From NCBI GenBank assembly GCA_964447495.1, contig CAYUTF010000002.1, positions 32,001 to 96,000 of the forward strand: a DNA stretch of 64,000 bases. The letters are read 5' to 3'. The position numbers were made by a program, and so were the translations under genes. The stretch comes from an uncultured archaeon. Lineage in GTDB: Archaea > Asgardarchaeota > Lokiarchaeia > Sigyniarchaeales > SOKP01. Positions 4,801 to 51,330 of the stretch are shown here, in pieces (within the stretch, counting starts at the first letter, position 1; each line of letters starts with the position of its first letter). The notes under the pieces are model-generated. The model ran no database searches and was not told the DNA's origin. It saw nothing but the letters and a program-made list of their open reading frames with translations.

Positions 4801-5965
4801 TATTGTCTGATTCATCGGCAATCCTGTAAATTCTTTCTAAACATCTTAGAGCGTCTGTATAATTATAGGTTTCATAATAAATTTTGTGAGTAACAAATAA
4901 TTTCGTAATTTCATTTGGTTCCTCTATAACCTTTGGAATCCAATTATTGATATCCAATGTGAACTGATCAGAGTCTAATGATTCTTTCGATTTAATAAAA
5001 TTAGTAATAAAATCTGATGTATTAATATCAATTCTATATATACCTAAAGAGGGATTTATGTGTTTAAGATTAAAAAGGATTAGATCTAGTCCATCAGCTT
5101 TCTCTGAATCTTGAATGTTTTGGAGGGAATATTCATGAATTTCGAGCTTCTTTCTTGCATCATCTACATGGTGTATCCATATTAAGTTTTCTAATTCTTT
5201 CATTACTTTTAAATTAGATAGGATATCATAATCATTATTTCCAGAATATCCCATTACAATAAGAGAACGTCCTTTTGTAAGATTGTCCAGAACCAATGAT
5301 TTAAATGGTTCTAATTGAATGAGACTGTTTCTTTCATGATTAAGGCTTATTAATTTAATGGTATTGACAAAGCTTTTTTTGGTGTTTTCACCAGTTATTA
5401 TATTCTTCGGTGAACCATGTATTTTATAAATAGGTGCTTTTCCACTTTTTATTAACTTCTCAGGATCCGAGTATTTATTAAAATCTTTTTCTGTGATTAC
5501 AGGAATTATTTTTTTCTTTGGTAATTCTGATTTTAATAACGCTTGTTCGATTAGATTATCAAAATTAGTAGTTATAACATAATTACCTTTCTTAAGCATT
5601 TCTGATAGAAAGAAATGAACGATATTTGGTTTATCACATTCAAGATAATAATCAACTATGTTTAAATCCTCATCAAGTATTTCACGTATTATCTCTAAAA
5701 GAACCTCAAATTTTAAATTCTCTATTTTTAATATATTATCAACTTCTGATTTTAAATTCTCTATTTTTAATATGTTATCAACTTCTGAAGGAGAACATAC
5801 ATATTTAATTAATTCCTTCATCATATCACGAGCAATAGGTAATCTTGAAGGGGACTTAACTGAAATTCCTGCTCCTACGAGAAAAGTGAGCCCTTGAGAT
5901 TCATTTAATAATTGAGTAATATCTAAATCAGAAGGTTTTTTAATTGAACTCAAATAAATTCGCAC
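1856..5965 (-). CDS. SIR2-like domain fused to a long TPR array
   Basis: FLVGAGIS, ITTNFD, KIHGS, VMGYSG motifs of SIR2_2-type domains, then >20 TPR-like repeats (GxIYxxQGxYxEALxxYEEAL). Confidence 0.85.
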   Translation of the reverse strand: MRIYLSSIKKPSDLDITQLLNESQGLTFLVGAGISVKSPSRLPIARDMMKELIKYVCSPSEVDNILKIENLKSEVDNILKIENLKFEVLLEIIREILDEDLNIVDYYLECDKPNIVHFFLSEMLKKGNYVITTNFDNLIEQALLKSELPKKKIIPVITEKDFNKYSDPEKLIKSGKAPIYKIHGSPKNIITGENTKKSFVNTIKLISLNHERNSLIQLEPFKSLVLDNLTKGRSLIVMGYSGNNDYDILSNLKVMKELENLIWIHHVDDARKKLEIHEYSLQNIQDSEKADGLDLILFNLKHINPSLGIYRIDINTSDFITNFIKSKESLDSDQFTLDINNWIPKVIEEPNEITKLFVTHKIYYETYNYTDALRCLERIYRIADESDNKVWKSLALVEMGKINFDKGDYEKSLEWFQKAIQAQIKIKNYAQRSTIFKYIALINQKQNEFSEAIKYFDLASKENEKSKDLTEKSKIMKHYASIYRKQEKYDDALKNYEIAIKINEKVDNNREKAKNLKEIGKIYYFKKNYQKAIQYLEDSLEINEQLENVEEKADIYNLLGMVYHLDGDSIKGIELCNKAFEIYERYQNVIGKLKTIKNMGLIYLDQWNYPKALELFEDGYSIAEEEGNKEQIADYSLQIGNIYYIQDKYNEALRWFEESFQLYEELGKLKGKVDVQVNIGLIYKKQKNYEKSLVKFGNSLKMYEALEDMKGKAEVLNIIGEIYLEQRKFGEALNSYQEALEVYEDLENLEGSAESLKNIGFYYQEQANFTEALNRYKDALNIFTNLNLIENQADLLNKIGSIYQDQGEYNEALKKFEEALEIFTAEGNMEGKIDSLHYIGLNYNYLGDLDEALKKFEEAVEIAEQIGNLTKKSHCLNIIGSIYKDQWDFLEALKHYEESLIIADQLGNYEDQVEILTIIGKIYQSQKHYPEAIRRFNEAIYIAEKLGNLEKKADIYYSIGDIYYDEETYPEALKWYEEALKIDEQLANLKGKALRLTSIAAIFLIHKKYDDVLKSYREALDIEEQLGNLTNQATIIRKIGKLYQEQNLFTEALGWYEQAYKIFVEIENFEGIYECFDNIGSIYENSRDFTEALKWYNEALKIAKQLDDLDKKASIFNKIGWGYYKLGIYKDALKRYNLALELFEKRGDLIGKTESLNNIALVYQDQGNYEQSLKWYDKAVKIFKVLGSSEEKAVNYFNTALIYRDKGDYLQALKTFEEALKVDEELNNLSRKAESLNNIGLIYLDDAKYDIASKRFEEAAKIAGKIKDEVKRAEYLNNLTLVQLNQKDYTKAWKTCNEALSLFKKLDDKRGLADTNYKMGLIYLDQKSYAEAMTRHEEALKILVSSGFNKHPLIKILKSNIKVIKSNLK
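5711..5788. repeat. 39-bp tandem duplication within the SIR2 domain
   Basis: ttttaaattctctatttttaatat(a/g)ttatcaacttctga at 5711-5749 and 5750-5788, one mismatch; encodes SEVDNILKIENLK twice. Confidence 0.95.
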
Positions 5966-11009: not shown

Positions 11010-13249
11010 TTAAAGAATCTTTTTTAACTCTAAAATTAGATTTTTGGGATTGACTCTGTCAAATTGATAAATTTCTGCTTTTCCGAAATCTTTAAAATTC
11101 TCCTTTATCTTATTAGCAGCAAAAGTATTTACACCTAATCCTTGAGTGGCATAACTCTTTTTTGGTTCTAACACTACAAGATGAACCCCTTTTTTAGATA
11201 AAGCCTTTGTTAATTCTTTTAATTCATTGATAATCACATTATAATCACTTTGTACTTGGGCAATTAAATCAGGATATTTTACGGAAATGTTTGCACCACA
11301 ATCAGAACAAATAAAAATTACGGGGATTATATTTCTATTCTTTAATTTTTCTGCATTAATTAATTTAAGAGATTTCTTTAATGCTGCAGCCATTGGTGTA
11401 TATGATTTTCCTTCAATATTTTTTACTTTATTGGCAGCATTCTTGAAATAAACCGTTGGTTTTTGAAGAACAACTGCATCTTTTCCTCGAAAAATTATCA
11501 GACTTATTTTGTCCTTCTTTCGATAACCTTCTTTTTGTAAAGATAAAATTACATCTGTCATTTGCTTTATTACATAGTACATCGAAGCAGAGCTGTCTAA
11601 TACAAAAAATAAAACCAATGGTGCACGATATTCGTATATTTTGTCCATTAAATCATACTTATTGAATTTAATGGGAAAATCAATATCAGTTTGATTATAT
11701 ATTGTATTTTTCAAATAATTTCTGATAGTTGCATCTAATGCGATACTTTTGGGGTTATTAATTGGAGTTCGATATGATACGTACCTTCCTTTTTGTGAGG
11801 AAGAAATTTTGATTCTTCTTCCGATTCCTCTTCCACCATAGTTAGAAACTTTCCTTTCTTTTCGAATATTATCCAAAATCGAAGTCATTTTTTTTTCCAT
11901 TTTATAGATTAATGGGAGAGCATCGAAATCATAATCTAAAAAATCAAACAACTCCTCATTAAAGGGAATATCCTTTACTTTCCATCCTCCAGCCGGTGAA
12001 GGACTTCTTTTTTTATTATCATGATATTTTGGTGCCGGTAATTTCTGTTCTTTAGTTTCTGGTACATCAACCTTTTTTGGATCTATTGATTGCCGTTTAA
12101 ATTCTTTCTGAGGGGCATCGTCATATTTCAGAGGACCTTCTGTGTCTTTATTCGGTTTATAGGTATTAGTATCTTCATATGCTTTCTGTATTTTTCCATA
12201 TACCTCAACAATTTTAGCTTTTATCTCTTCCGGAGTCATCTCATAGTGAAGGGATTGAATACGATGTTCAAAAACTAAATCCATAGCTACATTCAAATCA
12301 TCCTCAGCAACCATCTTTCTCCCGTTAAAAGCCGCATGAGCACGGGCACATCTGATAAAGGTAATATCTGCTCTTTGAGAAAAAATACCTAATTCATTAA
12401 CAAGCCTTGATACAAACTCATACACAGTAGAAGGAATTTGAACTTCTTTCATAATTTCACGAGCATTTTTTATTTTTTTCCTTAGCATTTCCTGTTCTTC
12501 TTCATATAATTTATGAAATTCTTTTGGATTATCATCAAATTCTATAACTCGTCTTGAAATTTCTGCTCGTAATTTCGGATCACGAGGTGCTTTGATTTTA
12601 ACTTCCAAACCTAGTCTGTCAGCTATCTGTGGGCGGAGTTCCCCCTTTCCGAATCCTAATTCGCTGTGAATATAGGATCTTCGGGGTTCATACTCCCGAC
12701 CAAGATAAATCGCGAGGGATGAGATACAGAGATTCCTTCTCGTTCTATTATGTTAACACCTGATGCCGCTGAATCCAATAAAACATCTACGATGTGATCT
12801 TGTAATAGATTTATCTCATCTACGTAAAGAATTCCTCTGTGAGCTTTGGCAAGCAATCCAGGATGAAGACTGCGTATACCTTCTGTAAGTACTTTATCAA
12901 TAGACAAAGATCCGCAGACCATATCTTCCGTAACTCCTAAAGGTAAGTCAATTATGCGCATGCTACGCCTTGCCCTTTCCATTGTTCCATCCTTAAGTTT
13001 AACACGACATTCATCACATAATTCATCAATTTCTGCGTTTGGATCACACGAAAACGTACAATCTTTCACCACTTCTATTTCAGGCATCATTTCTGCCAAG
13101 CTTCTAACAGCCGTAGATTTTCCTGTTCCTTGTTGCCCAGTGAGTAATACTCCAGCAATTTGAGGGTCTATAACATTAAGAATTAGACCCATTTTCATTA
13201 TGTCTTGACCGAGTATTGCTGTAAATGGGAAACTATTCCTTTTTACCAT
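11010..13249 (-). CDS. Chelatase-type (ChlI/ChlD-like) AAA+ ATPase fused to vWA; two exons (13249-12679, 12646-11010), 735 aa after removing a 32-nt intron
   Basis: FPFTAILGQ, Walker A GQQGTGKS, Walker B LYVDE, spliced NPEEGELRPQIADRLGL, MIDAS DSSAS; 2240-32=2208 nt=736 codons. Confidence 0.88.
12647..12678 (-). other. Putative 32-nt BHB-type mRNA intron
   Basis: AUCCUAUAUUCACAGCGAAUUAGGAUUCGGAA; central helix CCGA/UCGG, bulges AG^A and AA^A; removal gives CCC GAA GAG GGG GAA CUC (PEEGEL). Confidence 0.82.
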
Positions 13250-49542: not shown

Positions 49543-51330
49543 TTATCCTTCTTTTTCAATATATTCTAAATTTTCTAAAAGAGATCTTAACTTTAAGGCA
49601 TTTGCACCTCCAGATACCTGTATATTAACTATTGAATCCTCATCCGTACCAGTAACATTGGTTTCGATTAATACCTTTTCTGCTCGTATCTGTTTTGTTT
49701 GCCGTTTACTTAATGCTTCTTTTAAGGGTTGATCCAAATTTGGAAATTCAGCAGCAATTTCTACCCAGACTTCTTTTTGATGAGAATATTTAAACGTAAA
49801 ATCTGAGACTGTTTGTTTATAAAGTTCTTGATCGCACCAATTAATTAGATAGGCTCTATTAGGAAATTCAAGATCATCAATTAAATTATTCCTAATTTCA
49901 GATAAACTTTTAATATCTCCATTCTTCACAGCGATATCTATTTTTCTAGCTAATTTTGAATACTTTTTTGCTTTTACTGATTTTATAAAAGAGATCAGAT
50001 CAAATTTAACTATTAAATCGTTCATTGCATAATTATCGAGCATTTTTAAATCATTTACTTCTGGAGTTCCATCACGAAAACGAGTAGCTATTTCATAACA
50101 GGGCTTTCGATTAATATATCGTTTCTTAATTTCTTCTAAAACATGTTTAGTAAACTCATATTTATTACCCCAGAATGGTGCTTTCTCCAATTCTCGTGAT
50201 GTATATTTCACGCGATGGGATATTATGTAAGGTGCAATTGTATTTACAATATTAATATCAACTATATTCAAGTTTAATAACCATGCTAAAGCTTTAGAAT
50301 ATCTAAGAAGATCTTTTGCTACTCTTACACTTAGAATGGAATCAATTTTATTGCAAACGCTTTGTTCGGTGTTGAAATGACATCCAGAACACAATCCAGA
50401 ACTGGGTTTGATATTTTCAGAATTCCCCTTATCTACGCGAGCACATAAAGTATATTCTCTTATTATTGCATGAATATAATTATTCACTTCTGTTTCGAAT
50501 TTCATCTTGTTTACATGGTACCAAATTTCCATGAGACCATCAATATGTAAGATTTTAGGTACTTCAATCAATTCATCATATCCAGAATATTTTTCGTCCT
50601 TTCCTGTAAGTATTAATGATAAATCATTACTTGTTGGCATTGAGATAGGAACTGATATTCCAAAACGATCTAGAAACGGTTGAGACAGTTTTCGAATAAT
50701 TTGGAAATCAAATTAAATTTCGAATGTCCCAACATCTTGTGGATTTATAGTAGCATAAAGCGTGTATTTTTCTATAGTATTAATGGCATCGTAATATTTT
50801 ACTTTTCCTTCAGCTAATAAGGATAAAAGAATATCTTGGGCATATGGTGTCAATCTGTTGACCTCATCGATAATTTTCCAAAATCCAGTTACAAATTGCC
50901 TCCAAACGACTACTTCTTCCCCGTCTTTCATTAACTTTCCTAATTTTAAAGTCCCTGTAAGTTTTTCTTCTGTGAGTTGCGGTTAGCCGTTAAACGCTGA
51001 GAGCGATTAACTATGACCCCTTACAATGGAACTTTCAATTTGATCCAATGTCATACCAGTGAACATCCTACCTAATAGTTTAACTAAAGTAGTTTTACCC
51101 CCACCATGTCCTCCAACTAATAACATAGCAGAGTTTGGTACTAGCGCATTTAAAACACACATAGATAAAATTTCAGGCAATGTATTTGTTATAAGCTTCT
51201 TCTTATCCTCATTAAAATATTTAACTTCCAAATTTTTAGAATGAACAAATAATTGATTTGCTTGGATGAGGTTAATAGTGTTCCATACTTTTTTTCTTAA
51301 TGATTCTTCTTCTCCTAATATATTTGACAT
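49543..51330 (-). CDS. MoxR-like AAA+ ATPase; three exons (51330-51013, 50982-50719, 50688-49543), 575 aa after removing two 30-nt introns
   Basis: Walker A GGHGGGKT, spliced RGHPQLTEEKL, Walker B IIDEVNR, spliced NPQDVGTFELSQPFLDRF; all exons in one frame and the only internal stops lie inside the two inserts. Confidence 0.88.
50689..50718 (-). other. Putative 30-nt BHB-type mRNA intron (intron 2 of the MoxR-like gene)
   Basis: AUUUAAUUUGAUUUCCAAAUUAUUCGAAAA; outer helix GUUGGGACA/UGUCUCAAC, central UUCG/CGAA, bulges AA^A and AA^C. Confidence 0.85.
50983..51012 (-). other. Putative 30-nt BHB-type mRNA intron (intron 1 of the MoxR-like gene)
   Basis: AGUUAAUCGCUCUCAGCGUUUAACGGCUAA; central GGUC/GGCU, bulges AU^A and AA^C, inner GUUAA/UUAAC plus CGCU/AGCG. 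Confidence 0.85.

Follow-up and report, generated by a model that had tools for sequence, protein, structure and literature searches.

A 64,000-nucleotide (nt) stretch of genomic DNA from an uncultured Asgard archaeon of the order Sigyniarchaeales (hereafter the window, in whose coordinates all positions are given) contains on its minus strand a 32-nt insert at 12647-12678 that separates an open reading frame (ORF) of 197 amino acids (aa) from one of 532 aa. It is highly likely that the insert is an archaeal bulge-helix-bulge (BHB) intron that interrupts the coding sequence of a ChlI/ChlD-type AAA+/vWA gene and is spliced by the endonuclease EndA and the ligase RtcB. In the mechanism we propose, the exonic CC-CCGA of the pre-mRNA would pair with UCGG..GG of the intron and the following exon, with a hairpin in the intron holding the BHB. 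A two-subunit EndA would then cut each bulge behind its second base (G12679 and A12647), and RtcB would ligate the exons, so that the frame is restored and one protein of about 735 aa results. Translation of unspliced RNA would terminate at the TAG in the intron. The window is part of contig C2 in the assembly of the source genome (G000; 3.8 Mb in 223 contigs).

The 197-aa ORF occupies 12656-13249, and its stop codon falls within the insert. The 532-aa ORF is listed as 11010-12608, but its frame is open from 12644 and its first start codon is a TTG 13 codons in. Excision of 12647-12678 yields ..NPEEGELRPQIADRLGL.. on the minus strand, which restores the frame as ..NPEE/GELRPQ.. and brings together positions 181 and 182 of the NCBIfam profile TIGR02442, inside the AAA+ core. 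The 5' piece covers positions 1-181 of this profile and the 3' piece positions 182-625, so the two ORFs abut, and an uninterrupted orthologue (L006) spans positions 1-625 in a single stretch. Pfam matches are to Mg_chelatase (PF01078)/AAA_5 in the 5' exon and to AAA_lid_2 (PF17863) and VWA_2 (PF13519) in the 3' exon. The nearest solved structures are ChlI (8osf_A, 4e-100) and, for the C terminus, BchD (2x31_A). Judged from these matches, the two ORFs are one ChlI/ChlD-type AAA+/vWA gene. A first-pass annotation made from the letters of the window had proposed both the joining of the two ORFs by removal of the insert and a chelatase-type AAA+/vWA host family, and the profile matches bear out both proposals. 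The intact orthologue scores 579.7 bits against TIGR02442, below the curated equivalog cut-off of 779.45, and it also falls under the cut-offs of TIGR02030 and TIGR02031. Because all NCBIfam scores are under their curated cut-offs, the host protein is classed only as a ChlI/ChlD-type relative.

The distribution of the insert was determined in a set of 42 genomes of the genus, in which the region is present in 39 and the site sequence could be read in 35. The 32-nt insert occurs at the same site in seven of the 39 (G000, G005, G008, G016, G023, G042 and G050). The remaining 32 are without it; 28 were read directly as ..AAY CCN GAR GAR GGN.., and G004, G048, G049 and G054 were scored as continuous from matches that are 32 nt shorter than the query span. 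In a wider set, made up of the 80 best loci with each species represented by one genome, the site is uninterrupted in 79, bacterial and methanogen homologues included, and the sole exception holds an insert of the G023 type. The insert is retained in more distant carriers that are 75-81% identical, and it is missing from the nearest relatives of G000, the sister genomes G041 and G046. We rejected the possibility that the insert is translated, as it contains an in-frame stop in all carriers. When G000 was searched with blastn-short for other copies of the intron, the hits were its own locus and fortuitous 13-16-nt matches only, and hence the intron is not a repeated element.

The cut sites were fixed by comparison with the insert-free orthologues, which are continuous exactly where the BHB rule places the cuts. 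The boundaries given in the first-pass annotation are thereby upheld, and the helices drawn there (CCGA/UCGG, UCCUA/UAGGA, AUUC/GAAU, CC/GG and GGAGU/ACUCC) are all present in the sequence. The central helix CCGA/UCGG has four of four Watson-Crick pairs. It is flanked by a 5' bulge, A12680 G12679 ^ A12678, and by a canonical 3-nt 3' bulge, AA^A, closed by the 2-bp exon helix CC/GG; the UCCUA/UAGGA and AUUC/GAAU stems lie within the intron. Both cuts are situated two bases beyond the 4-bp helix, one on each strand. The motif is a relaxed BHB of the hBH type and not a strict one, and carriers differ in the first base of the intron (A, G or U).

When the cut was shifted by up to 6 nt in either direction, a complete central helix was found at the proposed position only. 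To gauge how often such a motif arises by chance, all 127,780 segments of 32 nt on both strands of the window were scored. A 4/4 central helix is present in 3,138 of these, and requiring an exon helix of at least 2 bp as well leaves 489; 19 (0.015%) have in addition an adjoining intron stem of at least 5 bp. The real site has a central helix of 4/4, an exon helix of 2 and an intron stem of 6.

Covariation was analyzed on seven carrier sequences, of which six are distinct and which represent about three lineages. Standard pairs occupy 90.8% of 120 cells, compared with 20.8-58.3% when the partner strand is slid. The central helix (H) and the exon helix (h) are invariant across the six distinct rows, and the changes fall elsewhere: one pair of the intron stem is changed on both sides from C-G to U-A, and in the outer helix, where 80% of the cells are paired, the pair in columns 10/63 changes from UA to CG at two synonymous exon sites in two of the six rows. 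The covariation score is 0.150 against 0.098 +/- 0.018 and was matched by 3 of 500 shuffles. Because the sample amounts to about three lineages, covariation lends only modest support to the predicted structure. The codons AAC CCC GAA occur in seven of seven carriers and in one of 28 non-carriers, and the third bases of AAC and CCC are paired within h and H.

Transcripts were sought in one sediment metatranscriptome, available as contigs and covering 0.10 of the sampled words. Eight RNA contigs match the gene at about 93-98% identity, and one of them, 257 nt long, skips exactly the 32 nt. It aligns to 12592-12645 and 12678-12871 with seven mismatches in 248 aligned bases; the join 12645|12678 can slide by one base, and the product equals removal of 12647-12678. 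The junction anticipated for the RNA is thus present in one contig, at a depth of 3.2 and from a strain that is about 97% identical. No unspliced contig was seen among the RNA contigs and parts of the gene are uncovered, but neither is informative at this depth.

The ratio of nonsynonymous to synonymous divergence (dN/dS) was calculated between carriers; for either exon it lies at 0.04-0.11 wherever dS is unsaturated. The underlying values are 0.005/0.128 and 0.025/0.232 for G005-G042, 0.014/0.222 and 0.017/0.256 for G016-G008, and 0.033/0.36 for exon 2 of G005-G016. Both exon frames are open in all seven carriers. By these measures both exons are under purifying selection in the carriers, and neither a dead gene nor two unrelated polypeptides split within the AAA+ core would be expected to show such ratios together with open frames.

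Several observations weigh against an intron of this kind. The strict 5' bulge of an hBHBh' motif is lacking, as AG^A faces the unpaired U12653, the one extra U that had already led the first-pass annotation to call the bulge relaxed; pairing of A12678 with U12653 would reduce the 5' side from a 3x1 loop to a 2-nt bulge. RNA folding, which had been suggested as a check, went the other way: the unconstrained minimum free energy (MFE) fold of the 81-nt site lacks the BHB (-26.4 kcal/mol, z = -1.8), and its energy is attained by 12 of 200 shuffled sequences. A fold constrained to the BHB reaches -19.8 kcal/mol against an MFE of -24.1, so the BHB is not the minimum-energy structure. The number of pairs with a double change, from about three lineages, was matched by 177 of 500 shuffles. 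The RNA junction is seen in a single contig of depth 3.2 from a library that possibly contains DNA, and its source is a population with about 96-97% identity to G000. The same contig would be obtained from a strain lacking the intron.

This last point leads to a different explanation, in which the insert is retained in the RNA, the gene is a pseudogene or yields two polypeptides, and the RNA contig comes from a close strain without the insert. The strain behind the contig is indeed known from RNA alone, and gain or loss does occur in the genus, with G041 and G046, the nearest to G000, lacking the insert. However, carriers at 75-81% identity still hold the insert, and we therefore regard an intron-less source for a population about 96-97% identical to G000 as unlikely; the contig presumably derives from a strain whose DNA holds the insert. 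A retained insert would also break the protein inside the AAA+ core, at profile positions 181/182, and leave the downstream frame to start at the TTG 13 codons in. It is moreover kept to saturated synonymous divergence, while the exons maintain their low dN/dS and open frames in seven of seven carriers, and its structure is conserved with compensatory changes. Taken together, we consider retention improbable.

Alternatively, the 32 nt could be excised from the RNA by an endonuclease and ligase other than EndA and RtcB. The departure of the 5' bulge from the strict motif would be compatible with this, and the role of the two enzymes is predicted from sequence. Against it, the EndA rule places each cut two bases beyond a 4-bp helix, as is seen here on both strands, and the same rule is followed by two inserts in a second gene of the window (inserts A and B, described below). 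An EndA with a broad-specificity loop and RtcB are both encoded in the genome, and the window gave no match to any Rfam family, those of self-splicing introns included. Excision by other enzymes is thus improbable to a still greater degree than retention. A hairpin with a stop just past the break resembles translational bypass elements, and the insert has both, so one could imagine that it stays in the mRNA and is crossed by a ribosomal frameshift or hop. Yet the take-off and landing codons mismatch in the required frame, landing on GAA 12649-12647 would continue in the wrong frame, an RNA-library contig lacks the 32 nt, and the BHB geometry would be left unexplained. Of these explanations translational bypass is the least credible, and we give it next to no weight. 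The preferred interpretation remains an intron excised at a BHB, and it is supported by three further inserts of the same build, in this gene and in the second one.

Polymorphism within the genus, a recombination tract and the two inserts in the second gene are findings beyond the first-pass annotation. In a tree of RtcB, a single marker from 38 genomes of the genus, the carriers fall in three places: G000 (whose sisters G041 and G046 lack the insert), G023, and a clade of G005, G008, G016 and G042. The approximately unbiased (AU) test rejects the carriers as one group for both exon 1 (p 1.4e-4) and exon 2 (p 4.8e-6). For exon 1 it also rejects G000 with G041 and G046 (p 0.016), a group that was named after the trees had been seen. 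By these tests the carriers are not one clade.

The two exons have different nearest relatives. Between G005 and G016 the identity is 0.72 over exon 1 and 0.91 over exon 2, with dS values of 2.35 and 0.36, and the changeover is found 60-80 nt downstream from the site of the intron. Exon 1 of G000 is nearest to G005 and G042 (0.90 at the 5' end) and exon 2 to G041 and G046. The intron types track exon 1, with ATCCTA.. in G000, G005, G042 and G023, and KTTCTC.. in G008, G016 and G050. As judged from these comparisons, a recombination tract spans the intron; the mosaic locus, together with intron types that follow exon 1, suggests that intron-bearing segments have been exchanged between species. 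The patchy distribution may be due to spread, to repeated precise loss, or to both. The mosaic region itself extends over about 12570-13249 (5' exon, intron and some 60-80 nt of the 3' exon) and differs in ancestry from the remaining gene and RtcB; it also covers the orthologous stretches of G005, G016, G041 and G046.

The second interrupted gene encodes another AAA+ protein (AAA_5) and carries inserts A and B, both of 30 nt. In G046 it is one continuous ORF of 574 aa, with AAA_5 at residues 69-203, across both insert sites. Neither insert is present in 22 of 26 genomes of the genus. With cuts after 51013/50983 and 50719/50689, the exon translations are flush in insert-free genomes (a gap of 0, compared with 30). 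Both inserts have a 4/4 central helix at shift 0 only, with cuts two bases past the helix. In insert A the central helix includes two G-U pairs and the 5' bulge is strict, at 3 nt; the intron stem has 5+4 bp and the exon helix 1 bp. The central helix of insert B is UUCG/CGAA, its exon helix extends over 9 bp, and its 3' bulge is canonical and its 5' side relaxed. In insert B, a pair of the central helix changes from C-G to U-A in G041, a stem pair changes from A-U to G-C in G042, and the 5' bulge is strict in G042. The two AAA+ proteins are distantly related, and in their homologous NP..G..L...DRF stretch (compared at 50719-50745 and 12679-12700) the sites of insert B and of the 32-nt intron are only a few residues apart (..NPQDVGTFE^LSQPFLDRF.. 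and ..NPEE^GELRPQIADRL..). The coordinates of all these features are collected in Table 1.

Table 1. Positions of the predicted intron, its structural elements and the inserts of the second gene in the window
Feature	Position	Strand	Remarks
5' exon	12679..13249	-	ATG at 13249; last base G12679 is the first base of the split Glu codon
Predicted BHB-type intron, 32 nt	12647..12678	-	Its in-frame TAG (12658-12656) terminates the 197-aa ORF
3' exon	11010..12646	-	Remaining AAA+ core, AAA lid and vWA domain; stop 11010-11012
Exon helix h and central helix H, 5' strands	12681..12686	-	CC 12686-12685; CCGA 12684-12681
Unpaired U12653, H, 3' bulge and h, 3' strands	12644..12653	-	UCGG 12652-12649; AA^A 12648-12646; GG 12645-12644
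Outer exon-exon helix, 3' strand ACUCC	12635..12639	-	Pairs with GGAGU 12696-12692
Second interrupted gene, AAA+ (AAA_5)	49543..51330	-	Three ORFs: 51007-51330, 50713-50931, 49543-50640
Insert A, 30 nt, in-frame, stop-bearing	50983..51012	-	Present in G000 and G017; absent (exons flush) in 24/26
Insert B, 30 nt, in-frame, stop-bearing	50689..50718	-	Present in G000, G041 and G042; absent in 23/26

In a clade of four genomes (G001, G015, G022 and G057) the chelatase gene contains a different insert further downstream, 30 nt long, in frame and TAA-bearing, and this clade is without the 32-nt intron. The insert is a candidate relaxed BHB, although a weaker one (central helix 3/4, exon helix 2). 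In translation it adds 10 codons after ..EVYGKLQ, at about codon 157 of the part aligned to 11013-12644, at loci L038 (G022), L040 (G015), L042 (G001) and L043 (G057).

Further inserts were looked for by aligning positions 1-60000 of the window with close relatives; about 18 kb of the first 20 kb were aligned (with G046) and 37,291 of the 40,000 bases of the remainder. Four other 20-kb regions of G000, compared with five relatives over 72,139 aligned bases, revealed no ORF-breaking inserts, and the indels found there leave the frame of the longer allele open. In total, about 128 kb were compared and three inserts found, all inside the window and in two AAA+ genes. Since the window was chosen for one of the three, no density is stated. 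Indels of 12-39 nt near 5700 and 25820 were considered and set aside as ordinary in-frame indels with continuous ORFs.

A scan of the genome for ORF-joining BHB motifs gave 583 hits at 394 stops, with 586-627 hits at 395-440 stops in controls with a slid partner strand, and thus no enrichment; for introns of at most 40 nt there were 14 hits against 11-16 in the controls, again no enrichment. The scan recovers the real site among about 100 chance hits and is therefore uninformative on abundance. ARAGORN returned no match in the window. Elsewhere in G000 it calls many intron-bearing tRNA genes and a tRNA-SeC, on contigs C1, C2 (outside the window), C4, C8, C15, C17, C24 and C54; calls with 'introns' of 670-807 nt look unreliable. 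Contig C205 has a G+C-rich stretch in an otherwise A+T-rich assembly and is maybe a contaminant (estimated contamination 3.75%).

The enzymes proposed for splicing are encoded in G000. There are two paralogues of EndA (tRNA_int_endo), of 201 and 205 aa, as well as an RtcB ligase. The alpha paralogue of EndA keeps the catalytic Tyr, His and Lys, and its best solved match is 3p1z_B, of the Aeropyrum pernix type (8e-36). Its K-P-R aligns with K44-P45-R46 of the specificity loop of 3p1z_B, and the loop residues K44 and R46 are described as conferring a broad EndA substrate range in the parts of PMC3241643 that treat them. In the second paralogue a Ser is found in place of the catalytic His. The two paralogues fit an (alpha-beta)2 enzyme, such as passages of PMC5829648 report for Asgard archaea, and they would presumably assemble into such a heterotetramer. 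According to sections of bioRxiv 10.64898/2026.10.13.758758, two EndA paralogues are present in 44 of 60 Asgard genomes. EndA and RtcB are thus the likely enzymes acting on this RNA. The gene for the catalytic EndA subunit (L052) is located on a contig of about 3.5 kb (C196) of genome-like composition, whose assignment to the bin is by binning alone.

The broad-specificity Asgard EndA very probably also acts on mRNAs, given the comparative, structural and transcript support at this locus and the existence of at least three sister cases, of which two are in the window and one occurs in relatives. We put forward, as a tentative possibility that we hold to be rather less than an even chance, that the genus has tens per genome of BHB mini-introns of 30-32 nt in coding genes, gained and lost between species through homologous recombination that carries flanking exon along. 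If such a population exists, many 'split' or 'pseudo' genes in Asgard assemblies would be intact spliced genes, and among the archaea most closely related to eukaryotes mRNA splicing by protein enzymes would be routine. For annotation, the consequence is that gene callers will list interrupted genes of this type as fragments or pseudogenes; the 197-aa and 532-aa ORFs are an example. The variable presence within the genus and the recombination tract make gain, loss and transfer of this class of intron directly testable.

In eukaryotes, HAC1 and XBP1 contain a short frame-changing mRNA intron that is removed without the spliceosome, by a protein endonuclease and an RtcB-type ligase. The endonuclease is IRE1, the motif is a pair of stem-loops, and splicing serves as a regulated stress switch. 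The insert described here is likewise a short, frame-changing mRNA intron in our interpretation, but it would be processed by EndA at a BHB instead of by IRE1 at paired stem-loops. In HVO_1309 of Haloferax volcanii an mRNA is also cut by the splicing endonuclease at a BHB; in contrast to the present case, that intron is in the 5' untranslated region (UTR), restores no reading frame and is met by a different type of EndA (passages of PMC7714728). The non-canonical tRNA introns of Asgard archaea share the motif, have been gained repeatedly, are relaxed in many cases and presumably depend on the same enzymes (parts of PMC11291895 and of bioRxiv 10.64898/2026.10.13.758758), but they interrupt tRNA genes and not a protein gene. 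In these sources, mRNA introns are unmentioned in the passages of PMC11291895 on Asgard tRNA introns, and the word 'mRNA' is absent from the main text of the preprint. A full-text literature search, with subscription journals outside its scope, returned no account of BHB introns within coding regions of Asgard archaea.

The closest known counterpart is the intron of cbf5 (Watanabe 2002; Yokobori 2009, PMC2738675). As of 2009, passages of PMC2738675 describe a BHB intron in the coding region of cbf5 of Crenarchaeota as shown by experiment and others as predicted only. As of 2020, coding-region BHB introns had been reported for cbf5 of Crenarchaeota only, along with the 5'-UTR case in Haloferax (passages of PMC7714728). 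The cbf5 intron resembles the insert in being short, of the BHB type and in a protein-coding region, with a motif that is often relaxed; its hosts have a hetero-oligomeric EndA, and its lineage-specific presence and absence has been read as gain and loss (sections of PMC2738675). The two differ in that cbf5 is a pseudouridine synthase gene of Desulfurococcales and Sulfolobales, whereas the host gene here is a chelatase-type ATPase of an Asgard archaeon. In addition, several introns are found here in two genes, patchily within a genus and one of them in a recombination tract, and splicing is experimental for cbf5, whereas here it rests on one metatranscriptome contig. The insert is the same kind of intron as that of cbf5, but not the same intron.

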